From an uncultured Erysipelotrichaceae bacterium (GTDB lineage: Bacteria > Bacillota_I > Bacilli_A > RFN20 > CAG-826): DNA of 64,000 bases. The stretch lies in the NCBI GenBank assembly GCA_902768335.1, contig CACXKR010000001.1, positions 17,205 through 81,204 of the forward strand, in the 5' to 3' direction. A program made the position numbers and the translations under genes. The notes beneath the pieces were generated by a model. That model did no database searches. It was not told where the DNA came from and saw nothing but the letters and a program-made list of their open reading frames with translations. Positions 3,054 through 61,556 of the stretch are shown piece after piece; position 1 is the stretch's first letter; each line of letters opens with the position of its first letter.

Positions 3054-5670
3054 TTCTTTTTTTGAACTCCTTATTATATGGAATCTGCATTGTAATGCAG
3101 TGGATGTTTCCTCCACCTAGCAATACTTCTCTTGTGTTAATTTGAATAATATCCTTATTAGGATAAAGCTTTTTAAGTTGAGCTTTTGCAAGTTTGTCTT
3201 CGGGCACTCCAAAAGCAGGTAATATAACGAATTTTTCGCCTTGATAGAAATTGATATATGATGCAGCAAGTCGAGAACCTTCTGGTCTTGCCTTGGCATC
3301 ATATCTTCCAAGTTTGATGCCTTTAGCTTCGCTCTTTGTCATATAAAGAGGTTTAGGAAGTTTTACTTTTATAATTTTTATTTTTCTTCCTTTTGCATCT
3401 ACAGATGTAGATAAAACTTTATATGCAGATTGAGAGAACTTATATTGTGGATCATCTTTATCTTGTGGCCATGCTAAAGCGACAACTCCTGGTTCGATAA
3501 AACAAGCCATATTATCAACATGTTCATTTGTTTCATCTTCAAAGATGCCGTTTTCAAGCCAAATAACTTTGCTGACATTAAGATAAACTTTTAATGTTTC
3601 TTCAATTTCTAATTGATTAAGATTTGGATTTCTACCTTTTGAAAGCAAGCATGCTTTTGTGACTAAACAAGTGCCCTCTCCATCAACATGAATCGAGCCA
3701 CCTTCTAAAATAAAGTCATCAAGATAATATCTTTCGACACCAAAATGCTTAGAAAGTTTCTTTGTCAAAACATCGTCATCTTTGTAATTAGAATAAAGAC
3801 CATCGAAATCTCCACCCCAAGCGTTAAATCTAAAATCAACCATTCTCATTTGGTCACCATTTGTTACAAAGATTGGACAATTGTCTCTTGCCCAAGCGTC
3901 ATTATATTTAATCTTAAGAGGAATAACGTTTTTAAGATTTTCGTAATCGCTAATAACCTTTTTATAAATAGATGGATCGATTCCAACATAGACTGGTTCA
4001 TATTTAGCAATTGATGTAATGATTTTTCTAAAGCATTCGAGAGCTGGTTTAGCATTATTTCTCCATGTATCTTTTCGATATGGAAGCAAAATGATGGTGC
4101 CACTATGTTTATTTCCTTCAAATGGCATCGCAAAATCATCACCACGAGGTGTTGTTAATCTCTTTTCAATATAATCGGTTAATTTATTTTTATATGTTCC
4201 GAATCTAGTCCAACTTTGAGTATCAATGACATTAACTTGTTCGGCTCCATAGTCCGAAAGAATGGTGACTCCTAATTTGCGATATTCGCTAATGCGTTGG
4301 ATTAAGTCGTTTGTGAACACTTCACCTGGAACAATTAAAGGTATTCCTGGTGGATAAATCATAATCGATTCTTTTGAAATTTCGTTCACTGCTTGTTCAA
4401 GAGGAATTATCTTACTTGGAGCATGATATGCTGCTCTTGGACGAGTAATTTGGAACGGGAAATCCATCCCGAATGCGTGACGTGGATATTCGAGTTTTTT
4501 ATGGTAATGAGTTTTCGAAATATCCCGCAAAGCGCGGATAAACCTTGTCATTTGAGTCTTGTCAGAGCCAATTGCTAAAATGCCCATAATGACATAGGTT
4601 TCAGCGAGCTCAACTTGAATATTGTATTTTTCTTTTAATAGATGATAGAGTTCAAAACCATTGATATCAAGGTGGTCCAATTTGATGACTAATTTTGTTT
4701 CATCATAATCAAAGCAACCTCGTTCAATAAAGTGGTCTTTGTTACAAGGAATAAATCCATTGATCTTGGCGATTTGTTCACGAGCGTATTTACTAAGTTC
4801 GTGAACTCTGTCCATGTTTTGTTGGCCCTTAGTTGCAACGTATTGACGCGCTGCATCAAGTGATGCCATTAACAAGGTGGATGGAGAAGTCGTATTTAAA
4901 ATATTGATTGCTTTTTGTACTGAAGCTCTATCAATTAATTTCGATTTAAGAAGAAGTATGCTTGATTGAGTTAAGCTACCTCCGGTCTTATGAAACGAAA
5001 CAGATGAAATGTCTGCTCCTGCATCCATTGCGGACATAGGACCTTTTTTATCGAAATAGTAATGTGCACCATGAGCTTCATCGACAAGGACAGCCATGCC
5101 TCGTGAGTGAGCTTCTTCGACAATACGTTTCAAATCTCCGACAGCGCCAAAATAAGTTGGGTTGATAACAAATACTGCTTTAGCAGTTGGGTAACGGTGC
5201 ATGGCAGTTATATAAGCATCAACGGTCGGTTGATTAGCGATTTCAAGCTCAGTATCTAATTTAGGCATTATATAAACTGGCGAAGCACCAGAAAGAATTA
5301 ATGCTGAAACAATTGATTTATGAACATTTCTTGGAATGATGATTTTTTGATTAGCATGACAAACAGACATAATCATCGCTAAAATTCCGCTACTAGTGCC
5401 ATTAATCAAAAAGAACGAATGATCAGCATGACAAAAATCTGCCATTAATTGCTCAGCTTCTAAAAGAACTCCATGTGGATTGGCTAAATTATCCATTCCA
5501 ATCGGAGCATTGATATCACAGCGATAAACTTTATCGCCTATAAACGTTTTAAATTTATTAGCGACGTTGCCCATATGATGTCCTGGAACATCTAGTGGAA
5601 CAACATCTTCACTTACATACTTTTTCAAAGCGTCTAAGTATGGGGTTTTATTTTGATCTAACTTCTTCAT
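3043..5670 (-). CDS. bifunctional fusion of arginine decarboxylase (Orn/Lys/Arg decarboxylase fold, PLP) and agmatine deiminase, in one 875-aa reading frame
   Basis: The N-terminal roughly 480 aa are Bacillus SpeA-like and carry the PLP-lysine motif SFHKTGGSLTQSS. The C-terminal roughly 380 aa are agmatine deiminase (TPRGDDFAMPFE...WRNNAKPAL N-term, ...GGGNIHCITMQIPY catalytic Cys C-term). Confidence 0.8.
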   Translation of the reverse strand: MKKLDQNKTPYLDALKKYVSEDVVPLDVPGHHMGNVANKFKTFIGDKVYRCDINAPIGMDNLANPHGVLLEAEQLMADFCHADHSFFLINGTSSGILAMIMSVCHANQKIIIPRNVHKSIVSALILSGASPVYIMPKLDTELEIANQPTVDAYITAMHRYPTAKAVFVINPTYFGAVGDLKRIVEEAHSRGMAVLVDEAHGAHYYFDKKGPMSAMDAGADISSVSFHKTGGSLTQSSILLLKSKLIDRASVQKAINILNTTSPSTLLMASLDAARQYVATKGQQNMDRVHELSKYAREQIAKINGFIPCNKDHFIERGCFDYDETKLVIKLDHLDINGFELYHLLKEKYNIQVELAETYVIMGILAIGSDKTQMTRFIRALRDISKTHYHKKLEYPRHAFGMDFPFQITRPRAAYHAPSKIIPLEQAVNEISKESIMIYPPGIPLIVPGEVFTNDLIQRISEYRKLGVTILSDYGAEQVNVIDTQSWTRFGTYKNKLTDYIEKRLTTPRGDDFAMPFEGNKHSGTIILLPYRKDTWRNNAKPALECFRKIITSIAKYEPVYVGIDPSIYKKVISDYENLKNVIPLKIKYNDAWARDNCPIFVTNGDQMRMVDFRFNAWGGDFDGLYSNYKDDDVLTKKLSKHFGVERYYLDDFILEGGSIHVDGEGTCLVTKACLLSKGRNPNLNQLEIEETLKVYLNVSKVIWLENGIFEDETNEHVDNMACFIEPGVVALAWPQDKDDPQYKFSQSAYKVLSTSVDAKGRKIKIIKVKLPKPLYMTKSEAKGIKLGRYDAKARPEGSRLAASYINFYQGEKFVILPAFGVPEDKLAKAQLKKLYPNKDIIQINTREVLLGGGNIHCITMQIPYNKEFKKRNEN

Positions 5671-24867: not shown

Positions 24868-27450
24868 TTATTCTTCACTCTTTTCTTGAACTTCTTCAGT
24901 GGCAGGAGCTTCTTCTTCACCTTCAACCTCGTCTTCGTGTGGGACGACAGTGATGGAGGAAACTCTTTGTTTTTCGTCTTCTAAACGGATAACTCTAACG
25001 CCTTGAGTGTTGCGGTCGGAAACTTTGACTTGTTCAAGTGGAATTCTAATGACTGTTCCGCCATTAGTAACCATCATTAAGTCTTCATCTCCATTGACTG
25101 CTCTCATAGCGACAAGTTTGCCATTTTTTGGAGTTGCATTAAGAGTGGTGACACCTTTTGCGCCACGTTTGGTTTGACGATATCTTTCGATCTCTGACAT
25201 CTTACCATAACCTTTGGAGGTGATGACTAAAATGTATTTACCTTCGAGGGAGGTTGTCATGCCGACAACATAGTTACCAAATTCGTCGCCTAAATCGATA
25301 CCGATAACACCACTGGCGGTTCTACCGAGTGGACGAGCTTCGGTTTCAACAAATCTAACGAGTTTACCTTTGCTAGAAGCTAAGCAAATCTCGGTATCAC
25401 CTTCGGTGTATTTAACATCGAGCAAGGAATCGCCTTCACGAAGTGAGATAGCGATTTTACCGTTTCTTCTAATTGATTCGTATTCTTTGACATCAGTACG
25501 TTTAACGATACCGTTTCTAGTTGCAAAGAATAAGTAGTGGCCTTCACTATAATCATAAATTGGAATGATAGAGACAACTTTTTCGCCTTTTTCAAGGTTG
25601 AGCAAGTTTTGGATTGGAATGCCTTTAGAGATTCTGCTTCCTTCAGGAATCATATAGCCTCTTAAACGATAAACTCGGCCAAACGAGGAGAAGAACATGA
25701 CGTCGATATGAGTTTTGGTGTGTAACATAATTGCGACATCATCATCTTCGTTAGTTGCCATACCTCTAACTCCACGACCACCTCTATTTTGAGTACGGAA
25801 TGTTGATGCTTCCATTCTCTTAACATAGTTGTTCTTGGTTAAGGTGATGACGATTTCTTTTTCTGGGATTAAAGCTTCATCTTCGATGGTTGCAGCTTCA
25901 TCAGAAATATCGGTCTTACGTTCATCGCTATATTTTTCTTTGATTTCAAGGAGCTCTTCAACAACGACGTCGGTGATGTGTTCTCTTGATTCAAGAATAT
26001 ATTTGTATTTAGCGATGTTTTCTTCGAGTTGTTTACGTTCTTCTTCGAGTTTTCCTGATTCTAGACCAGTTAATCTACGGAGAGTCATCGCTAAAATGGC
26101 GGCTGTTTGTTCTTCACTAAATCCGAATTTCGCCATTAAGGCTTTGCTTGCATCATCCGGCGTAGCGGCGGCTTTGATAGTTTCAACGATTTCATCGATG
26201 TTACCAATAGCTTTTAGTAAACCGACAACAATGTGATCGCGAGCTTCGTCTTTAGCGAGCAAGAATTTGGTTCTTCTTTCAACGACTTCAACTTGGAAAT
26301 CTAAATAATGCTTAAGGATTTCGGTGATTGGAAGAATCTTTGGTGCGCCATCGACAAGGCAGAGCATAATGATGCCCATACTAGTTTGAAGTTGGGTCAT
26401 CTTATAAAGTTGATTGAGAATAACTTCTGGAATGGAATCGTGACGAACATCAATAACGATGCGGACGTTTCCTTTAGAAGATTCATCACGGATATCGGTG
26501 ATGCCTTCAATAACTTTATCTCTCACTAAGTGAGCGATCGATTCAATCATGTTAGCCTTATTGACTTGATAAGGAATTTCATGAACGATGATTTGTTTTC
26601 TACCTGTACGTTCATTTTCTTTAATTTCACATTTTGAACGAATGGTGATTGAACCAGTACCAGTTTCAAAATAATCTTTGATACCAGTTCTTCCTAAAAT
26701 TGTGGCACCTGTTGAAAAATCTGGACCATATAAATAGTTGGCCATAATTTCAAGTGGAGTAATTTCAGGATTTCTTGCCACTGCGACAACTGCGTCGATA
26801 GTTTCACCTAAGTTGTGGGTTGGAATATAAGTTGCCATACCGACAGCGATACCGTTACTACCGTTGACAAGTAAGTTCGGGAATCTAGCAGGTAAAACAG
26901 ATGGTTCTTGTTCGGTACCATCATAGTTATCGATCATATCGACTGTATTGCAGTTTAAATCGCGGACCATTTCGGTCGCTAATTTGGTCATTCTGGCTTC
27001 GGTATAACGCATAGCCGCTGGTTCATCACCATCGACAGAACCGAAGTTACCATGACCATCAACAAGGGTGTATCTCATAGCCCATGGTTGAGCTAAACGA
27101 GCAAGGGTGCTATAAATCGCTTGGTCGCCGTGTGGGTGAAATTTACCCATGACATCACCAACGATACGAGCGGATTTCTTGTAAGGAGTGCCCGGAACCA
27201 TTCCGGATATGTGCATACCATAGATAACTCTACGGTGAACTGGTTTACAACCATCGCGGACATCAGGAATAGCACGAGCAACGATGACGGACATCGCATA
27301 ATCAAGGAATGAGTTCTTAACTTCGCTAGCGAGGTCGGTGTCTCTTAATCCTGGAACGATACCTTCTTCGATTTCGCTTAATTTGGCTTCATCGACTTCT
27401 TCTTCTTTAGCTTCGTCGACAATTTCTTCTTTTTTGATTTCGTCTGCCAT
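24868..27450 (-). CDS. gyrA: DNA gyrase subunit A
   Basis: AAMRYTEARM active-site Tyr region and GyrA box. Confidence 0.97.
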   Translation of the reverse strand: MADEIKKEEIVDEAKEEEVDEAKLSEIEEGIVPGLRDTDLASEVKNSFLDYAMSVIVARAIPDVRDGCKPVHRRVIYGMHISGMVPGTPYKKSARIVGDVMGKFHPHGDQAIYSTLARLAQPWAMRYTLVDGHGNFGSVDGDEPAAMRYTEARMTKLATEMVRDLNCNTVDMIDNYDGTEQEPSVLPARFPNLLVNGSNGIAVGMATYIPTHNLGETIDAVVAVARNPEITPLEIMANYLYGPDFSTGATILGRTGIKDYFETGTGSITIRSKCEIKENERTGRKQIIVHEIPYQVNKANMIESIAHLVRDKVIEGITDIRDESSKGNVRIVIDVRHDSIPEVILNQLYKMTQLQTSMGIIMLCLVDGAPKILPITEILKHYLDFQVEVVERRTKFLLAKDEARDHIVVGLLKAIGNIDEIVETIKAAATPDDASKALMAKFGFSEEQTAAILAMTLRRLTGLESGKLEEERKQLEENIAKYKYILESREHITDVVVEELLEIKEKYSDERKTDISDEAATIEDEALIPEKEIVITLTKNNYVKRMEASTFRTQNRGGRGVRGMATNEDDDVAIMLHTKTHIDVMFFSSFGRVYRLRGYMIPEGSRISKGIPIQNLLNLEKGEKVVSIIPIYDYSEGHYLFFATRNGIVKRTDVKEYESIRRNGKIAISLREGDSLLDVKYTEGDTEICLASSKGKLVRFVETEARPLGRTASGVIGIDLGDEFGNYVVGMTTSLEGKYILVITSKGYGKMSEIERYRQTKRGAKGVTTLNATPKNGKLVAMRAVNGDEDLMMVTNGGTVIRIPLEQVKVSDRNTQGVRVIRLEDEKQRVSSITVVPHEDEVEGEEEAPATEEVQEKSEE

Positions 27451-27469
27451 AATTATTATCTCCTTTCCA

Positions 27470-30548
<3,079 letters not shown>

Positions 30549-30552
<4 letters not shown>

Positions 30553-30767
30553 TTGATCAAATAACTTTTTCCTTCAATTTCAATCGCATCGTTCGGGCGT
30601 AGTTTACGACCACGTCTATTATCGTCTTCTCCGTTAATAACAACTTTGTGCGACGCTAGAAATTGTTTTGCTTCACCACCAGATTGAATGATGTCTGCAA
30701 ATTTGAGAAATTGACCCAATGTTATGAATTCGGAATCGATTTTGATTTCGGTAGTTTTTTTATTCAT
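30549..30767 (-). CDS. yaaA: S4-domain RNA-binding protein YaaA
   Basis: ITLGQFLKFADIIQSGGEAKQFL...DNRRGRKL is near-identical in pattern to B. subtilis YaaA. Start ATG 30767 (MNKKTTEIKI) rather than the longer track ORF. It overlaps recF by 4 nt. Confidence 0.7.
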
Positions 30768-30876
30768 AAAAAGTTCAATTCTTACTCTTGTGATACATTT
30801 TATCATATATAAAATAAAAAGGGAATAATAAATTCCCTTATAAATCAATATGTTCTAAAATGTCAAAATTTGGGGT

Positions 30877-31995
30877 TTATGAACGCAATGGCGTGACCAA
30901 CATATCGATGGTGTCATCTTTGCTATTCTTGACAACAAATGGCTTCATTTCGCCTATAAACGCAATAGTGACATCTTCGCTCTTGCAAGCCTTAATAGCG
31001 TCTGCAACAAAAGACGAACGGAAGCTGATTTCCAAGCGTTCTCCAGAGAATTGGAAAACATTTAATTTTTCGTTTGCCGATCCCACTAACGATGAACGCG
31101 AAATAATTTCAACTTCGTCTTCGGTCATGATGACTTTAACAACTCCGTCATGTTCAGCAGAAAGCAAGGAAACACGTTCCATCGCTTTCAAAAATTCGGC
31201 GGAATTGACTTCTAAGAAATAATTAAAATTCTTTGGAACAATATTCTTTGTATTTGGATATTCGCCATTTGTTAAACGGGTTGAAATAACAGTGTTATCG
31301 GAAGAGAAAATTGCTTTCTTATCGCTTATAGCGATTTGAACCATTTCAGCCTCTTCAAAACTGCGAACGATATCAACCATTTTCTTTGCGGAAATATTCG
31401 CAACAAATCTAACATCGCTTTCGATATCAACCGATTTTCTAGCAAGTCTAGCAGTGTCGGTGGCTGTAGCGGTTAGCAAATTGTCGTGAGCTTCAAGATT
31501 GATAGCAGTGAGAATAGGCCTTGTTTCCTTTGTAGAGGCCGCGAAAACAGTCGAATCGACAAGGGTCATTAAATCCTTCGTCTTGATCTCTAATGTGGCT
31601 CCAGATGGGTTTAAATCGATTTGAGGATATTCTTCAGCTTTTATCGAATTCAATTTGAAGTTTGATTTACTATCTTCGATGCTAAGAACTGAACTATCGA
31701 TTAATTCAAAGGTGATATATTCTTCTTCGATATGTCTAACAACTTCGATAAGAATTTTGGCAGCGATCAAAGTTTCGCCATTTTGGCTATTCCTAATAAT
31801 TTCTTTTTCTCCAATCATATAAGGAATAGTTGTTTTGATAGTGATACTGTTATCACTTCCTAAAATTTCTAATCCTTTTTCAGTTAAAGAAAGTTTGATA
31901 TTTTGGAAAATTGGTAATTCGGCTTTTGGAGGAACTGCTTTTGATACTAAAGTTAATCCTTTAAGTAGCAACTCTCTATCGATAGTAAATCTCAT
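30877..31995 (-). CDS. dnaN: DNA polymerase III beta sliding clamp
   Basis: Length and N-term MRFTIDRELLLKGL... Confidence 0.95.
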   Translation of the reverse strand: MRFTIDRELLLKGLTLVSKAVPPKAELPIFQNIKLSLTEKGLEILGSDNSITIKTTIPYMIGEKEIIRNSQNGETLIAAKILIEVVRHIEEEYITFELIDSSVLSIEDSKSNFKLNSIKAEEYPQIDLNPSGATLEIKTKDLMTLVDSTVFAASTKETRPILTAINLEAHDNLLTATATDTARLARKSVDIESDVRFVANISAKKMVDIVRSFEEAEMVQIAISDKKAIFSSDNTVISTRLTNGEYPNTKNIVPKNFNYFLEVNSAEFLKAMERVSLLSAEHDGVVKVIMTEDEVEIISRSSLVGSANEKLNVFQFSGERLEISFRSSFVADAIKACKSEDVTIAFIGEMKPFVVKNSKDDTIDMLVTPLRS

Positions 31996-32034
31996 ATATT
32001 TATTTCTCCTTAAATAATTAATAGTAATAATGTC

Positions 32035-32053
32035 TGTGGATACTGTGGAAAAC
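32035..32053. promoter_or_regulatory. DnaA boxes in dnaA-dnaN intergenic region (second origin module / DUE side)
   Basis: TGTGGATAC (32035-43) and TGTGGAAAA (32045-53), each 1 mismatch from TGTGGATAA, next to an AT-rich stretch. Confidence 0.5.
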
Positions 32054-32127
32054 CTGTCTTTTGTATATTTTAGATAAAATCATTTTAACATAAGATTTTT
32101 CACGCGCACACATAATTTTTTATAAAA

Positions 32128-33480
32128 TTACGATTTGAGTCTTGATCTAATGTCAGAAACAGCGGTTTGGAGGTTCGTATTAGTTTTCAACGATTTCTCC
32201 ACTTTGTTTACACCGGACATAACGGTCGAATGATCCTTGCCTCCGAACGTGTAACCTATTTTTGTGAATGGCACATCAAGCATTGTTCTAATAAGATACA
32301 TCGCTATATGTCTTGCGAGAGTGTAATTACTTTCTCTTGATGGTCCTGTTATTTGCGATGGGGTCAAATGATAATAATCTGCAACGACATCAATAATCTT
32401 TTGCTCAGACAATTTTTGGTTAGCGTCTTTAACGTTAATTAAGTTTTGGAGAGCTTCCATTGCGATGGTCATATCGATATATTTGGTTGGTCTGAAATTT
32501 GTGACGTACCAGATAATACGATTGAGTGCGGAGTCAATTTCCCTGACATTTTTCGAGAATTTTGATCCAATGAAGTCCAAAACAGCTGGATCAAATGAAT
32601 TAATATCCAACGGACTATTTTCAATTTTTGATTTCAAGATAGCGACACATGTAGGAACTTCTGGTTGGGCGATAACAACCATTAATCCAGAAGCGAATCT
32701 CGTTTTTAATCTGTCTTCGAATCCTTTTAATTCCGAAGGAGCTTTATCACAAGTGATAACGATTTGCTTTCCTGACGCCATCAATCTGTTGAATATATCA
32801 AAGAAGAAAACTAACGTTTGGTCTTTGTTTGCTAGTAGTTGAATATCGTCAACAAGAAGAGCATCATACGAGCAAATATATTTTTTAAGAGCCTCGATTT
32901 GCTTTGCTCCAGAAGCCATCTCAATAAACTCTTGTAAAAGATCGCCAGATTCGCAATATAATGCCTTTTTGCCGGGCATTTTTTCACGAATGAAGTTTAA
33001 AATACCTTGCAAAAGATGGGTTTTTCCTAGACCAGGATTTGAATAAATAAATAAAGGATTGAAGTTCGCACCAGGATTAGATGCGATATACATAGCAGCT
33101 TGTTTTGCTTCCAAGTTGCTAGGTCCTGTAACAAAGTTGTCAAAGGTCAAATTTGGGTTAACAACTGAATTTTTAAAATACAATGGTTTATCTTCGGTTG
33201 GAGCGGTCGATTTCAAATTTTCTGCAACGTCAAATTTTAGTTTGACTGAAGTGCCAACTATTGATTTAACCGCATCTTGTAAAGCTCCAAGATATTTGGT
33301 GGAGAGAATCGTAGCGGCTAATTTAGAGTTAACACAAACAACCATTTGATTCCCTTCGTAGGAATGAATGTAGGATTCAGATAAGAAAACATCGAAAAAG
33401 CGCACATCTTCAATGCTATCTCTTAATTTTGCGGTGATCCCAGACCACAAGTTTTTGAGTTCAGTAATTGTCTCAGGCAT
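32128..33480 (-). CDS. dnaA: chromosomal replication initiator DnaA
   Basis: AAA+ Walker A GLGKTHLL and C-terminal DNA-binding domain. Confidence 0.97.
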   Translation of the reverse strand: MPETITELKNLWSGITAKLRDSIEDVRFFDVFLSESYIHSYEGNQMVVCVNSKLAATILSTKYLGALQDAVKSIVGTSVKLKFDVAENLKSTAPTEDKPLYFKNSVVNPNLTFDNFVTGPSNLEAKQAAMYIASNPGANFNPLFIYSNPGLGKTHLLQGILNFIREKMPGKKALYCESGDLLQEFIEMASGAKQIEALKKYICSYDALLVDDIQLLANKDQTLVFFFDIFNRLMASGKQIVITCDKAPSELKGFEDRLKTRFASGLMVVIAQPEVPTCVAILKSKIENSPLDINSFDPAVLDFIGSKFSKNVREIDSALNRIIWYVTNFRPTKYIDMTIAMEALQNLINVKDANQKLSEQKIIDVVADYYHLTPSQITGPSRESNYTLARHIAMYLIRTMLDVPFTKIGYTFGGKDHSTVMSGVNKVEKSLKTNTNLQTAVSDIRSRLKS

Positions 33481-33558
33481 AAATTCACCTTCCTTCGGTT
33501 GTTTACAAGTATACTATTAATGAAATTAATATCAAACACAATTTTTAAAGATTTAATT

Positions 33559-33858
33559 TTTTCCACAGAAATAGCAATAAATTAGTATCGAATTCATCGA
33601 AACTTTCAGAGTTTTCCACAATTTTTGCATTGTTTTGAAATTGTGATGTGGATTCTGTGGATTACTTTAAAAAATAGTTTTCAACAATTCGAACGTTATT
33701 CACATTTAAAAATTCTCAAAAAACTTCGACCCAATCGAAACTAAACTGATTTATTAACAATTCACAAACGCTTGTTATCAACACCATGTGGAATCCACAA
33801 CTTTTTATAATGTAAACGCTTACAAATTGACAACTATTATTGGCAAAATTGTGGATAA
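33559..33858. promoter_or_regulatory. oriC DnaA-box cluster upstream of dnaA
   Basis: Boxes are TTTTCCACA at 33559-67 and at 33612-20, TGTGGATTC at 33647-55 and TGTGGATTA at 33656-64. TGTGGAATCCACA at 33787-99 is an inverted pair. TGTGGATAA at 33850-58 is a perfect match. Confidence 0.7.
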
Positions 33859-33925
33859 AATCTATTCTCACCACTTGTTAGTATATTAAAGAAATCGCAT
33901 ACCCGCACACCTGCATAATTTATCT

Positions 33926-33954
33926 TTGACTTATCACACACACGCTTATATAAT
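33926..33954 (+). promoter_or_regulatory. sigma-70-type promoter for rpmH-rnpA operon
   Basis: -35 TTGACT, 17-nt spacer, -10 TATAAT. Confidence 0.6.
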
Positions 33955-33990
33955 TTTCTCGCGTGTTAAAAACACAAGGAGATTTACCTT

Positions 33991-34125
33991 ATGAAAAGAA
34001 CTTATCAACCAAGCAAGAAACACAGACGTAATGTTCATGGTTTCCGTAACAGAATGTCCACAGCAAGTGGCCGTAAAGTTTTAGCTGCAAGACGTAGAAA
34101 AGGAAGAGCAACTTTAACAGCTTAA
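33991..34125 (+). CDS. rpmH: 50S ribosomal protein L34
   Basis: [44 protein letters not shown] (44 aa). It is too short for the ORF track. SD AGGAG 8 nt upstream. Confidence 0.9.
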
Positions 34126-34131
34126 TTTTTC

Positions 34132-34455
34132 ATGAAAGTTTTAAATCGCATTAAAAAGAATGTTGAATTTAACAAAGTGATCGATGAAGGCCAAATCATT
34201 AAGGCGGATTCGGTCACAATATACTTTCAAGAAAACGCATTAGGTTATACTCGAATTGGAATTTCAATTCCAAAAAAGAGTGGAACAGCGGTCGTTCGTA
34301 ACAAGATGAAACGACAAATAAGAGCAATCATTGCTAGCGACATATCTTTAGATAAAAGTGTCGACGCCGTGATCATCGCTCGCAAGAATTACGATATTTC
34401 CAATTTTTTAAAAACAAAGGAAGATATCAAAGAATTATTTAAAAAAGTAGGATAA
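34132..34455 (+). CDS. rnpA: RNase P protein component
   Basis: It sits 6 nt after rpmH and is a basic protein of 107 aa. Confidence 0.9.
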   Translation: MKVLNRIKKNVEFNKVIDEGQIIKADSVTIYFQENALGYTRIGISIPKKSGTAVVRNKMKRQIRAIIASDISLDKSVDAVIIARKNYDISNFLKTKEDIKELFKKVG

Positions 34456-34459
34456 ACGC

Positions 34460-36022
34460 GTGAAAAGAGTACACAAAATTGGATTAATTTCTGCCGGTTT
34501 ATTGGCAATTACTTTTGTGGCATCTGCTTGTACAGCAAGTTTTTGTACTACAAAAGATAAAAGTAGAATACTTTTCGCAGTTGAACCAGGGGTCTCGACC
34601 TATTACAACACAGAAGCTGATGCTGATGCAGCGTTAGCGACATTAGATAGTCGTTCGTTCAAACAACAAGTTGAAGGATCGAATGTCTGGCGTGTTGTTG
34701 GAAAAGATTCCGAGAATAACTTTGCCATGTACGATTACAAACAAGCGCAATTTGTTAAACTCACCCAACTCGAAGGTATCATAAAAAATGCTGCAAACAA
34801 CGGTGCATATCGTCCATCAGATAGATATTTTGCTGCTATGGACCAAAAAGTTTTGGTAAAAGCTTTTGAAACCGCCGGAAAATCTTTAACAGAAACAAAT
34901 GTTGAAGAAGTCAGATCGATATTATCTGATTACGGTTATGTTAAGTATTATGGTGAAAACAATCTTTGGGAAAACTATGATGCTTTAAATAACCAATTAG
35001 CTCAAGAATTACCTCTTGGCTATGATGAATGTGCATCCGCAGGTTTTATTAGTGTTTACAAGAGCAACATGGATTCTGTTGTGAATGCAAATAGATCCTG
35101 TATTACAGTAATCGAAGGTAGCTATGGTAACTACGGACAATTCCATGAAACTGTCCATCTCGAAAAAGTTACATGGGGTGATGCTTGGCACAAAGGCGGC
35201 GCAGTCATTGAAGGTTTGATTGTCTATCCAGTTGCATGGATGGTTGACCAATTCGCATATATGATTGCAGGTGGAGCATCTGCCGGAGCAGACGCAATTA
35301 ATAGCGCATATCAAAGCGGTATTCCACAATTACTATCATTATTGATAGTAACAGTTATTGTTAGATTGTTTATTTTTTTGGTTTCGTTCAGATCAACATT
35401 GTCGCAACAAAAGATGCAACAACTTCAACCTGAATTGGCTAAGATTCAACAAAAATATCCAAACGCGAATACCAATGCTGCCCAAAAGCAAAGACTCGCT
35501 GAGGAACAAATGAAACTTTATAAGAAGTATCATATTAATCCGTTCTCTCAATTACTCGTGCTTATTGTTCAATTCCCAGTCTTTATTGGTGTTTGGGGCG
35601 CTATGACTGGATCTGCTGTATTATCAACAGGTTCCGTTTTAAACCTCAATCTCTCCGCTTCTATTTGGAATACGCTCACATATACTGATGGTTTACCATC
35701 TAATATGCATGGTTGGTGGACAGCTCTTACATTAATTATATTAATGTCTGTTGCCCAATTCCTCGCTATGAAGATTCCACAATGGCTTGCTAAGAGAAGA
35801 ACAAAGAAGATTGCTCGTTTAAGCAAGAATCCTGCTCAAACACAACAAACTCGTACTGCTAACATTATTAGCTATGTAATGCTAATCATGATTGTTGTCA
35901 TGGGCTTTACTCTACCAGCAGCTATGGGTGTTTATTGGTTGATTGGTGCTCTCGTTTCATTAGCACAATCTTTGATTATCCAATTTATCTTTGCTAAAAA
36001 AGGTAACAAAATCAAAAAATAA
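34460..36022 (+). CDS. yidC: membrane insertase YidC, lipoprotein form with large N-terminal extracytoplasmic domain
   Basis: GTG start, lipobox VASAC, and a conserved insertase core from about residue 290. It is 520 aa. Confidence 0.85.
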   Translation: MKRVHKIGLISAGLLAITFVASACTASFCTTKDKSRILFAVEPGVSTYYNTEADADAALATLDSRSFKQQVEGSNVWRVVGKDSENNFAMYDYKQAQFVKLTQLEGIIKNAANNGAYRPSDRYFAAMDQKVLVKAFETAGKSLTETNVEEVRSILSDYGYVKYYGENNLWENYDALNNQLAQELPLGYDECASAGFISVYKSNMDSVVNANRSCITVIEGSYGNYGQFHETVHLEKVTWGDAWHKGGAVIEGLIVYPVAWMVDQFAYMIAGGASAGADAINSAYQSGIPQLLSLLIVTVIVRLFIFLVSFRSTLSQQKMQQLQPELAKIQQKYPNANTNAAQKQRLAEEQMKLYKKYHINPFSQLLVLIVQFPVFIGVWGAMTGSAVLSTGSVLNLNLSASIWNTLTYTDGLPSNMHGWWTALTLIILMSVAQFLAMKIPQWLAKRRTKKIARLSKNPAQTQQTRTANIISYVMLIMIVVMGFTLPAAMGVYWLIGALVSLAQSLIIQFIFAKKGNKIKK

Positions 36023-44073: not shown

Positions 44074-45630
44074 ATGAAAGAACCATTGATTCTTACTATT
44101 GATTTTGGAACGCAATCAGTCCGTGCAGGATTATTTAATAAAAAAGGTGAAACAGTTGCTTTAGTTAAAGAAAAATACAACCCACCATACTTTTCTCCTA
44201 AGAAAGGATATGCCGAACAAGATCCTGAATATTACTTCGAATCGCTTTGTAAAGTAACAAAGAAATTAGTCGAAGAAAATAAGGATAAAATGGATGATGT
44301 TTTAGGCATTGTTATGTCCTTTTTTAGAGACTCGGTTGTCTGTCTCGATAAAGACAATAAAGTGCTCCGTCCTGCTATTTTGTGGCTCGATGAAAGAAGA
44401 GCCGAAGGCAAGCAAAAACTCCCGGTTTTGCATAGATTTTTGTTTAAATTGATCGGAATGAAGCCAACTATTGAACTCAATTTAAAGCGTTCTATGGCAC
44501 AGTGGATTAAAGAGAATGAACCAGAGATTTGGCAGAAGACTGATAAGTTCATGATGATCTCAACTTTTATCACTATGAAATTAGTTGGCGATTATGTTGA
44601 TTCACCATGTTCACAAGCTGGGCATCTCCCTATTAATTTTAAGAAAGGTGTTTGGTACAAAAATCCTGATAAGCATATTAAAGGCCAAATATTTGGAGTG
44701 GATGCAAAACGCCTCTGCAAACTTGTTCCTGTAGGTGAAGTTCTTGGTGAAATAACCGAAGAAGCAAGTCGTTTAACAGGATTACCGGTTGGAATGAAGA
44801 TGTTCTCAGGTGGTTCAGACAAATCTGCCGAAACATTAGGCTTAGGCGTTGTTGATGATAGAACTGCCGCGATTAGTTATGGAACAGCCTCTACGATTGA
44901 AATCCCTATTAATAAATATAAAGATGCAGAACCATTTTTACCTTCATATCCTGCAATTGTAAAAGGTTATTATAACCTTGATGTTCAAGTATATCGTGGA
45001 TATTGGATGTTAAATTGGTTCGCTAAACAATTTGGAACACAAGAAGTCGAAAAACTTCTCGACGAAAAAGACGAAATCGAAAAATTAAACAAAGCAATGC
45101 TAGATATTCCACCTGGAAGCGATGGCTTGGTGCTTCAACCTTATTGGGGGCCAGGTCTAAGAAGACCTCTCGCTAAAGGTGCTATCATTGGTTTTAGCGA
45201 TACGCACACAAAGATGCATGTATACCGCGCAATTATAGAAGGTATCGCCTATTGTTTAAAAGAAGGTCTCGAACTCTTCGAAAAGAAAAGACTCCATCAC
45301 AAAATTGATAAAATTAGAATATCTGGCGGTGGTTCCCAATCTGACGCAATCTGTCAGATTACCGCCGATATATTTGGTTTACCTGTTTCTAGAATTCAAA
45401 CATTTGAATGCTCATCTTTAGGATGTGCAATTGCTGGATTTGTTGCGGCCGGAGAATTTAATTGTGTCCATTGTGCTGTTAAAGAAATGGTTCATCAAAC
45501 TGATGAATTCTTACCGAATCCAGAGAACACTAAAAGATATAAATATCTTTTCGAGAATGTATACATGCCTATGTATCCAAGCTTAAAGAATATTTACGCT
45601 AAAGTTAAAAAATATAACGACGAATTTTAA
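44074..45630 (+). CDS. FGGY-family carbohydrate kinase (xylulokinase/glycerol-kinase-like)
   Basis: IDFGTQSVRAGLF N-term and C-terminal GGGSQSD. Confidence 0.8.
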   Translation: MKEPLILTIDFGTQSVRAGLFNKKGETVALVKEKYNPPYFSPKKGYAEQDPEYYFESLCKVTKKLVEENKDKMDDVLGIVMSFFRDSVVCLDKDNKVLRPAILWLDERRAEGKQKLPVLHRFLFKLIGMKPTIELNLKRSMAQWIKENEPEIWQKTDKFMMISTFITMKLVGDYVDSPCSQAGHLPINFKKGVWYKNPDKHIKGQIFGVDAKRLCKLVPVGEVLGEITEEASRLTGLPVGMKMFSGGSDKSAETLGLGVVDDRTAAISYGTASTIEIPINKYKDAEPFLPSYPAIVKGYYNLDVQVYRGYWMLNWFAKQFGTQEVEKLLDEKDEIEKLNKAMLDIPPGSDGLVLQPYWGPGLRRPLAKGAIIGFSDTHTKMHVYRAIIEGIAYCLKEGLELFEKKRLHHKIDKIRISGGGSQSDAICQITADIFGLPVSRIQTFECSSLGCAIAGFVAAGEFNCVHCAVKEMVHQTDEFLPNPENTKRYKYLFENVYMPMYPSLKNIYAKVKKYNDEF

Positions 45631-46187
45631 CGTTTAAAAATCTTAATTATATTGTCGATTGAAGGCACCTTAATAGTAGGGTACTTTTCATTTAATTTTG
45701 TTAGGTACAAACCTTTAAAGAATAGTAACAATGTCGAGGTTATATCACTTGGAGACCCACCGGTGATCGTTCCTTCGTTTTGGCCTTGTGAGATTAATTT
45801 TATGATTTTGGAACGAAGAGACAATTTTCCGTCGTTTGCCAAGATGATTAAAGCGAACGAAATAGTTGTTTTTGATTCATTTGCTAAATCTACGAATTTT
45901 CTAACCAACTCAACAAGTTGAGAATATGCTTCTTTTGTAAAATCAAATACATCAAGTTTTGAGAATAGATTTTTATATGTATTTGATGATAATAGCTCCA
46001 AATAAATTTGTTCACTATTTTTAAAATAATGATAAGCGAGCCCGTGTGAGCATTTCGCCTTTTGACAAATCATATCAATCGAAACGCCGTCTTTGCCATT
46101 GGTCGCAAAAAGAGGAAGAGCACTTTCTAAAATAGAGAGTTTTCTCTCATCTTTCATTTGTTGAAATTGAAGAGGGGTTCTAGGCAT
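45627..46187 (-). CDS. TetR-family transcriptional regulator
   Basis: N-terminal HTH (SIDMICQKAKCSHGLAYHYF). It converges on the kinase gene. Confidence 0.75.
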   Translation of the reverse strand: MPRTPLQFQQMKDERKLSILESALPLFATNGKDGVSIDMICQKAKCSHGLAYHYFKNSEQIYLELLSSNTYKNLFSKLDVFDFTKEAYSQLVELVRKFVDLANESKTTISFALIILANDGKLSLRSKIIKLISQGQNEGTITGGSPSDITSTLLLFFKGLYLTKLNEKYPTIKVPSIDNIIKIFKR

Positions 46188-57412: not shown

Positions 57413-57925
57413 ATGGATGGCGAATTTAATAATTTAAATATTAATAATGCAAACATAACTTTTTCAGTTGCGACCAACAATATTGCCACAAGTGATGAAT
57501 TAAATGTAGACCCAATCTATCAAAGACAGATGGGAACCAATTATTCAAAAGGTAAAAAAGTTGGTCGAGCAATAACAATCGTTGGTATTTCCCTTGCATT
57601 CACGGCAACCGCAATCGCTGGTGGAAGTGTGCTCAGCAATATTTTTGTGCCAAATCCCCCGACTGTGAGCAATGCGCTAATTAATGTTGAGGGTGAAACA
57701 CTAACATATTCATTCACTTTAAAAAATGTTCAGAAATATAAAACAGTTTTCAACCTGGACATCAATGGTGAAAACGTAATCAAAGAAGAGATTGTTGAAA
57801 GTAATGATTATAAAGGAGAATATTCTCCTGTCGTCAGTGGAGATAGATGCAAAGCTTATATCGTATTCACTAACTCGTTAGATTATTACAAGACAATTTA
57901 CACGAACGAATTTATTGCAAAATAA
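57413..57925 (+). CDS. hypothetical single-pass membrane protein
   Basis: One transmembrane helix (AITIVGISLAFTATAIAGGSV). Its stop is 13 nt before the mscS start. No recognisable domain. Confidence 0.4.
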   Translation: MDGEFNNLNINNANITFSVATNNIATSDELNVDPIYQRQMGTNYSKGKKVGRAITIVGISLAFTATAIAGGSVLSNIFVPNPPTVSNALINVEGETLTYSFTLKNVQKYKTVFNLDINGENVIKEEIVESNDYKGEYSPVVSGDRCKAYIVFTNSLDYYKTIYTNEFIAK

Positions 57926-59082: not shown

Positions 59083-59106
59083 GGCACCTATGGTGCCTTT
59101 TATTTT
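59083..59106 (+). terminator. rho-independent terminator after mscS
   Basis: GGCACC-tat-GGTGCC followed by ttttatttt. Confidence 0.6.
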
Positions 59107-59154
59107 CCTCTCAAAAATATCGTGCATGTAAATAAAAGTTAACATCATTTTTTG

Positions 59155-59183
59155 TTGACATATGCAGGTTCTTTATTTATATT
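59155..59183 (+). promoter_or_regulatory. sigma-70-type promoter of the HTH-glmM gene
   Basis: -35 TTGACA, 17-nt spacer, -10 TATATT, then SD AGGAG. Confidence 0.5.
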
Positions 59184-59211
59184 TGTTGCTACCTAAAAAA
59201 GGAGACTAATT

Positions 59212-60849
59212 ATGACTATTGGTGAGAAAATCACACATTTAAGAATAGCCAATGGTGTTTCGCAAGAAAAGCTTGCCACTATGCTTAATGTGTCACGTCA
59301 GTCTATTTCAAAATGGGAAAGTGATGAATCGCTTCCTCAAATTGATAAGATTGTTGAATTTTGTAGTTTGTTTAAAATTTCCACAGATGAGTTACTTCAC
59401 GACAGCGTCGTTATTCATCGTGGAAAGAATTTGGTGCCTAGCATTGGAGAAGATGTTAAAACCAAATATTTTGGTACAGATGGTTTTAGGGGAGAAGTTA
59501 ATAAGACTTTAACCGCTGATCACGCTTATAAGATTGGTAGATTCCTTGGTTGGTTCTTTTCTAATCCAAAATATTCTCTTCAAAAACCAGGTTATAGACC
59601 AAAAGTTGTTGTTGGTAAAGACACCAGAAGATCAAGTTACATGCTTGAATACGCTGTTGCAGCTGGATTAGCAGCAAGCGGTGCTGATGTTTATTTGCTT
59701 CACGTTACAACTACTCCAAGCGTCTCATATATCACAAGAATGGATGCTTTTGATTGCGGAATTATGATTACCGCATCACATAACCCTTTCTATGATAATG
59801 GAATTAAAGTTATTAATTATAATGGTGAAAAACTCGAAGATTCTGTTGCTGTTTTAATCGAAGCTTATATCGATGGTGATTTAAAGAAACTTGGTGTTGA
59901 AGGAGATGATTTACCATTTGCTTCTAGAGATAACATCGGCGTTGTTGTTGATTATTCCAGTGGAAGAAATAGATACATCGCTTATCTAATTTCATTAGTT
60001 CAACACTCATTAAAAGATTTCAAGATCGGTTTAGACTGCGCGAATGGTGCATCATGGATGATTGCAAAATCAGTGTTTGACGCTTTAGGTGCACAAACAT
60101 ATGTTGTAAATAACACTCCAAATGGCCTAAATATAAATTTAGATGCTGGATCAACTCACATTGAGAAGTTCTGCAAATATGTTAAAGACAATAAACTTGA
60201 TTTCGGTTTTGCTTTCGATGGCGATACCGACCGTTGCATTGCTGTTGATGAAAACGGCAAAGAAGTGGATGGCGACAAAATCATGTATATGCTCGCTAAT
60301 AAATTAAAATCAGAAAATTCACTTGAAGGAAATACAGTTGTTGCAACCATCATGTCTAATTCTGGTTTAGAAAAAGCTCTAAAAGGAATTGGCTGCAATC
60401 TCGTTAGAACAAAAGTTGGTGATAGATTCGTTTACGAAAGAATGCAAAAGGATAATTTCTCTTTAGGTGGTGAGCAATCCGGTCACATCATCATTAAGAA
60501 ATATGCGACAACAGGAGATGGCATTTTAACTGCTTTAATGGTGACTGAAGAAGTTGTCGCACGTAAGACAACTCTTTCTAAACTTGTTGCACCAGTTAAG
60601 CTATTACCACAAAAGACTGTCAATGTCCGCGTTACAAATAAAGCCGATACTTTAGACGATGCTCAAGTTCGCGCTAAATACGATGAATGCAACAAAGAGA
60701 TTGGTGATAATGGCAGAGTCCTATTAAGACAATCCGGTACCGAACCTGTCGTTCGTATTATGGCGGAATGTGCGACATTAGAAGAATGCGATAAATACAT
60801 CAAAAAGATTTATGATGTCATCAAGAAAAGAGGATACGTTTGTGAATAA
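59212..60849 (+). CDS. glmM: phosphoglucosamine mutase with N-terminal Cro/C1 (XRE) HTH domain fused in frame
   Basis: Residues 1-65 (MTIGEKITHLRIANGVSQEKLATMLNVSRQSISKWESDESLPQIDKIVEFCSLFKISTDELL) are a canonical HTH_3. From about residue 84 it is GlmM (YFGTDGFRG, TASHNPFYDNGIKV, FDGDTDR, GEQSGH). Confidence 0.85.
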   Translation: MTIGEKITHLRIANGVSQEKLATMLNVSRQSISKWESDESLPQIDKIVEFCSLFKISTDELLHDSVVIHRGKNLVPSIGEDVKTKYFGTDGFRGEVNKTLTADHAYKIGRFLGWFFSNPKYSLQKPGYRPKVVVGKDTRRSSYMLEYAVAAGLAASGADVYLLHVTTTPSVSYITRMDAFDCGIMITASHNPFYDNGIKVINYNGEKLEDSVAVLIEAYIDGDLKKLGVEGDDLPFASRDNIGVVVDYSSGRNRYIAYLISLVQHSLKDFKIGLDCANGASWMIAKSVFDALGAQTYVVNNTPNGLNINLDAGSTHIEKFCKYVKDNKLDFGFAFDGDTDRCIAVDENGKEVDGDKIMYMLANKLKSENSLEGNTVVATIMSNSGLEKALKGIGCNLVRTKVGDRFVYERMQKDNFSLGGEQSGHIIIKKYATTGDGILTALMVTEEVVARKTTLSKLVAPVKLLPQKTVNVRVTNKADTLDDAQVRAKYDECNKEIGDNGRVLLRQSGTEPVVRIMAECATLEECDKYIKKIYDVIKKRGYVCE

Positions 60850-61507
60850 GCTCAACATCAAAACGAAAGAATTATTTGAAAACGTTCCCAGCTACTTAAA
60901 GCCATATTTTGACGAAGCACAATATCCTTGGGAAATTTTGCCAAAAATCAAAGAAATCACCGCAAAACTCCTACAGACAGGTCTTGAAGGTTATACTCTT
61001 TTGGAAGAAGGAGTGCTTGTTGGTAAAGATGTTAAAATCGCTAAAACAGCGACAATTATTCCACCAGCAATCATCGGTAACGGAACTGAGATTAGACCAG
61101 GGGCGTTTATCCGTGGAAATGTTATTGTTGGCGATAATTGCGTCCTCGGCAATTCATCCGAATTCAAAAATTGTGTTTTACTCGAAAAGGTTCAATGCCC
61201 ACATTATAACTACATTGGGGATTCAATCTTAGGTTATCATGCTCATACTGGTGCGGGAACTGTGTGCTCAAACCTTAAGAGCGATGGCAAAAACATTGTT
61301 ATCCACGGCGACAAAGAATATGAAACTGGTTTAAGAAAAATCGGAGCATTTGTTGGTGATTATGGTGACTGCGGTTGTAACGCAGTGCTTAACCCAGGAA
61401 CGATCATTGGAAAGCACACTCAAGTTTATCCTTTAACTAGAGCGAGAGGCGTTTATCCTGAAAATAGTATTGTCAAAGACACGAAAGTCTTTGTTGATAA
61501 ATATTAA
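60842..61507 (+). CDS. hexapeptide-repeat (left-handed beta-helix) acyltransferase resembling the GlmU C-terminal acetyltransferase domain
   Basis: NYIGDSILGYHAHTGAGTVCSNLKSDGKNIV resembles the GlmU acetyltransferase domain. The likely start is GTG 60842 with SD AGAGGA 7 nt upstream. The track ORF starts at ATG 60812, inside the glmM 3' end. Confidence 0.55.
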   Translation: MNKLNIKTKELFENVPSYLKPYFDEAQYPWEILPKIKEITAKLLQTGLEGYTLLEEGVLVGKDVKIAKTATIIPPAIIGNGTEIRPGAFIRGNVIVGDNCVLGNSSEFKNCVLLEKVQCPHYNYIGDSILGYHAHTGAGTVCSNLKSDGKNIVIHGDKEYETGLRKIGAFVGDYGDCGCNAVLNPGTIIGKHTQVYPLTRARGVYPENSIVKDTKVFVDKY

Positions 61508-61521
61508 AAAATACCAAAAGG

Positions 61522-61556
61522 AAGAGATGGTCTTGTTACCATCTTTTTCTTTTTTG
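61522..61556 (+). terminator. rho-independent terminator
   Basis: AAGAGATGGT-cttgtt-ACCATCTTTT followed by a T-run. Confidence 0.6.

Follow-up and report, generated by a model that had tools for sequence, protein, structure and literature searches.

We analyzed a 64,000-nucleotide stretch of DNA from an uncultured Erysipelotrichaceae bacterium (contig CACXKR010000001.1 of assembly GCA_902768335.1, positions 17,205 to 81,204; hereafter, the window), focusing on a gene at 59212..60849 on the plus strand, whose product joins a helix-turn-helix (HTH) domain of the XRE/Cro-C1 type to the phosphoglucosamine mutase GlmM. With a probability of roughly 0.7, as judged from comparative sequence data, this protein, HTH-GlmM, is a bifunctional trigger enzyme that autoregulates the operon formed by glmM and an acetyltransferase gene. 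Fusions of enzymes to regulators are already known, for example BirA, PutA and NadR; the main new result is a family of palindromes upstream of the fused genes that tracks the HTH domain.

GlmM catalyzes an essential step of UDP-N-acetylglucosamine (UDP-GlcNAc) and peptidoglycan synthesis and, in model Firmicutes, is linked to signaling by cyclic di-AMP (c-di-AMP). A GlmM that reads DNA would, if true, join the short list of trigger enzymes and reveal a previously unrecognized, self-contained control circuit for cell-wall precursor supply. Such a circuit would be common among uncultured Clostridia of the rumen and gut as well as in a Bacilli-like lineage, where the annotation 'phosphoglucosamine mutase' conceals it. 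With an operator predicted, the idea can be tested directly, using a single protein and a short piece of DNA.

The fused gene, its protein and its distribution

The preliminary description of this DNA, made from the letters alone, had proposed an HTH domain fused in frame to GlmM and had suggested profile searches as a check. These searches place HTH_3 on the N-terminal part of the protein and PGM_PMM I-IV on the rest, all above their cut-offs. HTH_3 (PF01381) matches residues 10-61 (E 2.1e-12, 47.3 bits, with a gathering cut-off of 23), and the protein also lies above the Pfam cut-offs of HTH_19 and HTH_31. PGM_PMM_I to IV (PF02878, PF02879, PF02880 and PF00408) follow in order on residues 85-535, and TIGR01455, the NCBIfam equivalog model of glmM, scores 511 bits over residues 87-538 (cut-off 447.55). 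The gene starts with ATG and encodes 545 residues and a stop. The HTH domain, as delimited by the HTH_3 match, predicted helices and invariant residues, occupies residues 1-63 (59212..59400, plus strand), a flexible linker of low predicted confidence spans residues 64-84 (59401..59463, plus strand) and the mutase proper, defined by profiles and fold, comprises four domains in residues 85-545 (59464..60846, plus strand). At the level of the sequence, the fusion is thus confirmed as real and in frame, combining a genuine XRE-type HTH with a complete GlmM whose catalytic residues are intact.

The GlmM motifs quoted in the preliminary description (TASHNPFYDNGIKV, FDGDTDR and GEQSGH) are all present. 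The phosphoserine loop (59770-59787), with S189, lies in the TASHNP-type segment TASHNPFYDNGIKV at residues 187-200, the Mg-loop motif FDGDTDR at residues 335-341 (60214-60234), the sugar-loop motif GEQSGH at residues 420-425 (60469-60486) and the phosphate loop of domain 4, RQSGTEP, at residues 506-512 (60727-60747). S189, the Mg-loop aspartates D336, D338 and D340, GEQSGH and the RxSGTEP loop are invariant in 66 fused sequences. An AlphaFold2 model of the fusion, built from 66 homologues, has a mean predicted local distance difference test score (pLDDT) of 87. In this model, the HTH is a five-helix bundle at residues 3-62 (helices 3-13, 18-25, 29-36, 44-53 and 58-62, of which the second and third make up the HTH proper; pLDDT 75-92), residues 63-86 form a disordered linker (pLDDT about 58, falling below 50 at residues 69-72) and the GlmM part is a four-domain body. 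Foldseek ranks three solved GlmM structures, from B. anthracis, B. subtilis and S. aureus, as nearest to this body, at target-normalized template modeling scores of 0.94-0.96 and 42-46% identity. All catalytic loops of canonical GlmM from these species (7ojr, 6gyz, 3pdk) are common to the fusion, which differs by 84 extra N-terminal residues (HTH and linker) and by the setting of its gene, paired with a stand-alone acetyltransferase rather than placed in a cdaA-cdaR-glmM operon.

The closest solved relative of the HTH is that of ImmR from ICEBs1 (7t8i), and its recognition helix reads VSRQSISKWE (residues 27-36). The consensus in both bacterial classes that carry the fusion is MTIGEKI..LR....ISQE.LA..L.VSRQS(V/I)SKWE.....PQIDK...LC.LF..S.DELL. 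Residues S17, Q18, R29, Q30, K34, W35 and E36 are invariant across the 66 sequences of both classes and correspond, in Cro/C1 domains, to the start of helix 2 and the recognition helix. The linker varies in length and sequence among fused proteins, and that of Clostridia is wholly different. Within the linker, residues 64-71 partly retain a shared pattern, (I/V)-x-I-(H/N)-R, which reads 'VVIHRG' among the relatives in the window's clade and 'KIxINR' in many Clostridia; AlphaFold confidence is low for this piece, which may be a docking segment or contact the DNA backbone.

Whether the fusion is conserved across its clade or unique to this genome had been left to a homologue search, and the former holds, as the fusion is widespread in Bacilli-like metagenome-assembled genomes (MAGs) and beyond the clade in Clostridia. 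At least 120 clusters at 90% identity surround the window protein, all of those listed being fused and 545-564 residues long, and 119 of the 120 clusters listed at this identity in a search from a Clostridial homologue were also fused. In total, the fusion is found in more than 230 protein clusters at 90% identity, and it is encoded in 56 of the 80 best GTDB loci (one genome per species). One group of fused proteins comes from Bacilli-like rumen MAGs labeled Erysipelotrichaceae, Bacillales or Bacilli (67-79% identity), the other from many Clostridia, among them Acutalibacteraceae, Oscillospiraceae, Christensenellaceae and some Lachnospiraceae MAGs (56-65% identity). In NCBI, these proteins are labeled only 'phosphoglucosamine mutase' (e.g., MCR4911049.1 and MBE6768213.1). 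A scan of metagenome contigs yielded 80 loci, of which 4 were fused and 76, being unfused, were used as controls. When cluster representatives at 50% identity were searched, all of the top ones were unfused GlmMs; this search is uninformative on spread, as the fused proteins were evidently clustered under unfused representatives.

In a neighbor-joining tree of the catalytic domains alone, the 66 fused sequences form one clade, in which five apparently unfused sequences are nested. Two of these (L037 and L055 in our numbering of loci) are merely cut by a contig end, while the other three (L053, L054 and L057) are true secondary losses of the HTH. The single clade and its nested losses therefore indicate that the fusion arose once, spread and was occasionally lost. 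The unfused GlmM of L057 (about 3930-4010 of that locus) begins with MTTGEKTSALHQPTGAAKYFGTDG, a vestige of 'MTIGEKI...' (residual 'MTTGEK') joined directly to the mutase. The first six HTH residues are thus retained in L057, which suggests that the rest of the DNA-binding domain was deleted in frame. A pre-fusion state was also sought with a hidden Markov model of the HTH, which found no separate xre gene adjacent to glmM in the unfused loci.

Palindromes upstream of the fused genes

Alignment of the upstream regions revealed a perfect palindrome, GCAAC-N5-GTTGC, that occurs exactly once in 43 of the 56 fused GTDB loci, always upstream of the fused gene. No further copy is present in the roughly 476 kb that those loci span, and the 24 unfused loci have none. 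In the window's clade, TGTAAA-N6-TT(T/A)ACA occupies the corresponding location in 16 of 20 loci (with at most one mismatch), the flanks having diverged. The two forms intergrade, as in GCAAACTAAAGTTTGC, TGCAAACAAAAGTTTACA and GCAACCGATGTTTGC, and both forms occur in both clades.

Scans with a generalized motif, G-Y-A-A-M-N5/6-K-T-T-R-C, covered the glmM loci with their flanks and the 64-kb window, with the upstream region defined as 320 bp. The upstream regions of the 66 fused genes (21 kb) contain 76 matches, or 3.6 per kb, as compared to 24 elsewhere in the fused loci (0.04 per kb), 1 in the upstream regions of 93 unfused loci (0.034 per kb) and 17 elsewhere in these (0.031 per kb). The enrichment upstream of fused genes is about 100-fold, as shuffled fused upstream regions yielded 0.85 +/- 0.95 matches, with a maximum of 4. 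Where the HTH has been lost (L053, L054 and L057), the upstream palindrome is gone as well. Upstream of the L057 gene, only an operator fragment, GTAAATGCGGTTGC, is kept. Neither the flanks of the loci nor the window contain extra motif copies above background, and a wider regulon, which such copies would have hinted at, was set aside.

Neither half-site varies in sequence, and compensatory changes between the two are absent. As invariant half-sites without co-variation are expected from recognition by a protein rather than from an RNA hairpin, the palindrome is best viewed as a putative protein-binding site. A hairpin or riboswitch in the 5' untranslated region was rejected on this ground and because an Rfam scan returned nothing near the fusion gene and the main palindrome of Clostridia lies upstream of the inferred promoter. 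The cre site of CcpA is TGTAA-N4-TTACA; a CcpA cre or LacI-type operator was set aside on spacing alone, the arrangement here being TGTAA-N8-TTACA.

In Clostridia, up to three sites can be recognized. O1 is GCAAC-N5-GTTGC. O2, an imperfect YCAAn-N5-GTTGs present in about half to two-thirds of the 39 loci analyzed, lies 23 bp downstream of O1, center to center, and abuts the -35 hexamer. O3, found in 16 of the 39 loci, lies 71.5-74.5 bp upstream of O1, about seven helical turns away. Relative to the inferred promoters, many of which are TG-extended at -10, the centers of O1, O2 and O3 are at about -64, -41 and -137, respectively. In the window's clade, the palindrome is followed by the -35 hexamer after either 9-10 or 19-20 nt, spacings that differ by one helical turn. 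Several members of the clade (L001-L004, L005, L162 and L083) have a further full or near-full palindrome downstream of the -10 hexamer and ahead of the ribosome-binding site, at 20-22 nt from the ATG, which is GCAAC-N5-GTTGC or, in L005, TGTAAC-N6-TTTACA. Its location is a classical repressor position.

The promoter of the window gene is a sigma-70-type TTGACA-17-TATATT at 59155..59183 on the plus strand, matching 11 of 12 consensus positions. It is the best promoter site in the region, and since the scan found fewer promoter-like sites there than in shuffles, it can be considered a single strong site and not background. The candidate operator, TGTAAATAAAAGTTAACA (TGTAAA-TAAAAG-TTAACA), is an 18-bp near-palindrome at 59127..59144 that ends 10 nt upstream of the -35 hexamer, with its center at about -54.5 relative to the inferred transcription start. 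Within the 64 kb, it is the only match with at most one mismatch and the top match to the position weight matrix (20.1 bits, the next being an intragenic site of 13.0 bits). On its own, the match is not significant, 0.69 being expected by chance in the window, and the site thus draws its weight from position and conservation. The window also has a lone GTTGC half-site (59185..59189), which directly follows the -10 hexamer and lies approximately at the transcription start; the window, like L164, keeps only TTGTTGCTAC at this promoter-proximal place. The half-site is possibly, and speculatively, a remnant of the start-proximal operator GCAAC-N5-GTTGC of its relatives. With full second palindromes in some members and such a vestige in others, the operator set would therefore have been gained and lost within the clade.

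Autoregulation and its alternatives

In the mechanism that we propose, a catalytically competent mutase would convert glucosamine-6-phosphate (GlcN-6-P) to glucosamine-1-phosphate (GlcN-1-P), and the HTH, tethered to it by the linker, would bind the palindromes before its own gene. In solved Firmicute structures, GlmM enzymes are dimers; the enzyme body would therefore present two HTHs to a palindrome and would supply the dimerization that small XRE domains need, with each HTH reading one half-site of TGYAA ... TTRCA. Such binding would autoregulate the two-gene operon of glmM and the left-handed beta-helix acetyltransferase, which is predicted to make GlcN-1-P and then to acetylate it to N-acetylglucosamine-1-phosphate (GlcNAc-1-P) en route to UDP-GlcNAc, and enzyme levels would be self-limiting. 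DNA binding, the direction of regulation, the oligomeric state and any coupling to substrate or phosphorylation are what we infer here. The suggestion of direct autoregulation made in the preliminary description thus gains strong comparative support, with the conserved palindrome being upstream of fused genes only, while the binding step stays at the level of a prediction.

Several points weigh against this reading. The promoter and transcription-start positions are consensus predictions. The degenerate motif is not matched exactly in 13 of the 66 fused loci, the window included, five of which (the window, L081, L161, L165 and L006) have a site one mismatch away. GCAAC-N5-GTTGC is absent from the 64-kb window, even when one mismatch is allowed. 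The window site is an imperfect palindrome, with TTAACA in place of TTTACA, and it lies upstream of the -35 hexamer, leaving the core promoter uncovered, a position equally compatible with activation, with an effect on an UP element and with classical repression.

As for direction, we favor negative autoregulation somewhat, because the promoter of the window is near-consensus and would need no activator, because O2 abuts the -35 hexamer in Clostridia and because start-proximal sites are found in several relatives of the window. The preference is slight, as sites lying upstream and in helical phase would suit activation, or a mode like that of lambda CI, almost equally. The same binding to the same sites could thus make HTH-GlmM an auto-activator, or upstream sites could activate and the start-proximal site repress at high concentration, as for lambda CI. 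The centers of O1 (about -64) and O2 (about -41) are typical activator positions, in the window's clade the two distances between the site and the -35 hexamer are one helical turn apart, and the 23-bp spacing of O1 and O2 resembles that of adjacent lambda operators. Nonetheless, promoters with a near-consensus TTGACA at -35, as in the window and its closest relatives, or with a TG-extended -10, as in many Clostridia, need no activation, and positive feedback alone is hard to rationalize for an essential housekeeping enzyme. We consider this alternative unlikely, although it is the strongest of those examined.

A different question is whether the gene makes two products. The preliminary description had suggested that a free GlmM could be translated from in-frame TTG and GTG codons at 59431 and 59434, in addition to the full fusion. 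The two codons are indeed present in the linker of the window protein (59431-59436), and a sub-clade (L001-L007 and L082) has an ATG one codon further on. At the codon level, however, the closest relatives, L081, L161 and L164, which are 90-93% identical, have CTT, CTC or CTA and GTT there, so that the putative starts are not conserved even at 90% identity or more. No Shine-Dalgarno motif is found 5' of the TTG/GTG and the linkers of Clostridia contain no start codon of any kind. This comparison led us to reject the internal start, and two products are improbable.

It could also be argued that the HTH is a protein-protein or localization module rather than a DNA-binding one, and that the palindromes belong to another regulator. 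Folds of the XRE type are occasionally used in protein contacts, as in RodZ, the HTH of which binds MreB. GlmM itself is already documented as a binding partner and inhibitor of the c-di-AMP cyclase CdaA/DacA (PMC6368335). Against this, the palindromes track the HTH across two classes and vanish in the three lineages that lost it, the DNA-reading residues S17, Q18, R29, Q30 and K34 are invariant, and no separate XRE gene adjoins an unfused glmM. A role of this kind is, therefore, quite improbable. Slightly more remote is the idea of a dedicated regulator in which an inactive, GlmM-like part senses sugar phosphates, with mutase activity coming from a second gene elsewhere. Enzyme-derived sensor domains are common in regulators, such as MocR/GabR and the ROK repressors. 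Still, since every catalytic residue is invariant in the 66 sequences, such a pseudo-enzyme is not a likely description of HTH-GlmM, which retains the catalytic residues that MocR/GabR-like and ROK pseudo-enzyme regulators have lost. In addition, TIGR01455 scores above its equivalog cut-off, the gene shares an operon with the next enzyme of the pathway and no fused genome gave a second locus among the 80 best GTDB loci, the contig prefixes all being unique. Finally, an assembly chimera or missed frameshift concealing two adjacent genes, which the preliminary description had wished to see excluded, is ruled out for practical purposes, as 8 contigs of independent origin, in NCBI, ENA and Logan assemblies, encode the exact 545-residue protein and hundreds of homologues share its architecture and junction.

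To return to HTH-GlmM as a trigger enzyme, coupling of DNA binding to substrate or phosphoserine state is an attractive and entirely conjectural addition. In this extension, which we regard as tentative and on balance doubtful, HTH-GlmM would be a flux sensor, in which active-site occupancy or phosphorylation (GlcN-6-P, GlcN-1-P or glucosamine-1,6-bisphosphate) changes how the HTH engages the operators. Two or three operators in helical phase, at spacings of 23 bp and about 73 bp, would take part, possibly with looping between dimers. If true, this would provide many gut and rumen Firmicutes with a direct transcriptional read-out of amino-sugar supply for the cell wall, alongside or in place of the glmS ribozyme and GlmM-CdaA routes of model Firmicutes.

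Searches of the literature yielded no publication that describes a fusion of an HTH to GlmM or its operator. As in BirA (biotin ligase and repressor), PutA (proline dehydrogenase and repressor) and NadR, a metabolic enzyme and a DNA-binding domain share one polypeptide, and the predicted target of HTH-GlmM is, as in these proteins, the promoter of genes of its own pathway. The differences are that the enzyme is an alpha-D-phosphohexomutase and that the DNA-binding fold is the five-helix XRE type, in contrast to the winged helix of BirA and the ribbon-helix-helix of PutA. The trigger-enzyme concept was reportedly set out by Commichau and Stuelke (Mol Microbiol, 2008). With the Cro/C1 repressors lambda CI, 434 repressor and ImmR of ICEBs1, HTH-GlmM shares the HTH fold and the kind of candidate operator, 15-18 bp palindromes with 5-bp half-sites, several such palindromes being spaced 23 bp and about 73 bp apart. 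Unlike in these repressors, the C-terminal partner is a 460-residue enzyme and not a small dimerization or peptidase domain, and the gene is chromosomal, housekeeping and near oriC rather than in a mobile element. The regulation of CdaA/DacA shows that GlmM already moonlights in regulation tied to cell-wall precursor supply (PMC6368335); there, the contact is between proteins, without a DNA-binding domain, whereas no cdaA is adjacent to the fusion.

The operon and its chromosomal setting

The 5' boundary of the transcription unit is set by the intrinsic terminator that ends the MscS-like gene upstream (59083..59097, plus strand), which consists of GGCACC-TAT-GGTGCC and a T-run, and a ribosome-binding site, AGGAG (59200..59204, plus strand), lies 7 nt before the ATG. 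The fused gene is followed by one encoding a stand-alone, 231-residue left-handed beta-helix acetyltransferase (60812..61507, plus strand), which overlaps glmM by 38 nt, and the two-gene operon is closed by a strong terminator with a 16-pair stem and a T-run (61516..61553, plus strand). Upstream of the fusion lie lysS, an open reading frame (ORF) of 170 residues and the gene for the MscS-like channel, with no cdaA-cdaR arrangement. The view that the gene has its own promoter, outside the usual cdaA-cdaR-glmM context, is thus upheld by the promoter at 59155-59183, the preceding terminator and the genes upstream.

The acetyltransferase matches positions 182-389 of TIGR03992, corresponding to the acetyltransferase half of archaeal-type GlmU. 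Its closest known relative is the archaeal-type GlmU ST0452 of Sulfolobus tokodaii (2ggo, 5z09), with the C-terminal half of which (residues 177-385) it aligns at E 1.7e-25. It differs from this protein in being without the nucleotidyltransferase half, and its substrate is a prediction. As only the C-terminal half of an archaeal-type GlmU is encoded, a split GlmU is implied in these organisms. The operon plausibly covers two consecutive steps, GlcN-6-P to GlcN-1-P and GlcN-1-P to GlcNAc-1-P, the second being assigned from homology only. The acetyltransferase gene is directly 3' of glmM in 59 of the 66 fused loci. In some of the unfused Faecousia loci (L065 and L066), it is found immediately upstream of glmM instead.

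The fusion lies about 26 kb from the dnaA/origin region, with mfd, tilS, ftsH, dus and lysS upstream and rpsF-ssb-rpsR downstream; this neighborhood is core chromosome, not a mobile element. The 170-residue ORF between lysS and the MscS-like gene (57413-57925) has no Pfam match, and nor do its counterparts of 169-173 residues at the same position in L161 and L162. In the 64-kb window, Rfam detected no glmS ribozyme, the sole match being the bacterial small signal recognition particle RNA, RF00169 (23361-23456, minus strand, 65 bits). The chromosomal origin region is at 24868-36022, with gyrA, gyrB, recF, dnaN and dnaA (32128-33480) on the minus strand, followed by about 1 kb without long ORFs (33481-34459) and then, on the plus strand, by yidC, jag, mnmE and others. 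The YidC-like protein of this region has 520 residues, with the 60KD_IMP domain on residues 292-508 only. A further cell-envelope-related gene pair in the window consists of a gene for an undecaprenyl-phosphate translocase-like protein (PF04018; 46180-47100, minus strand) and an adjoining gene for a TetR-family regulator (45627-46187, minus strand).

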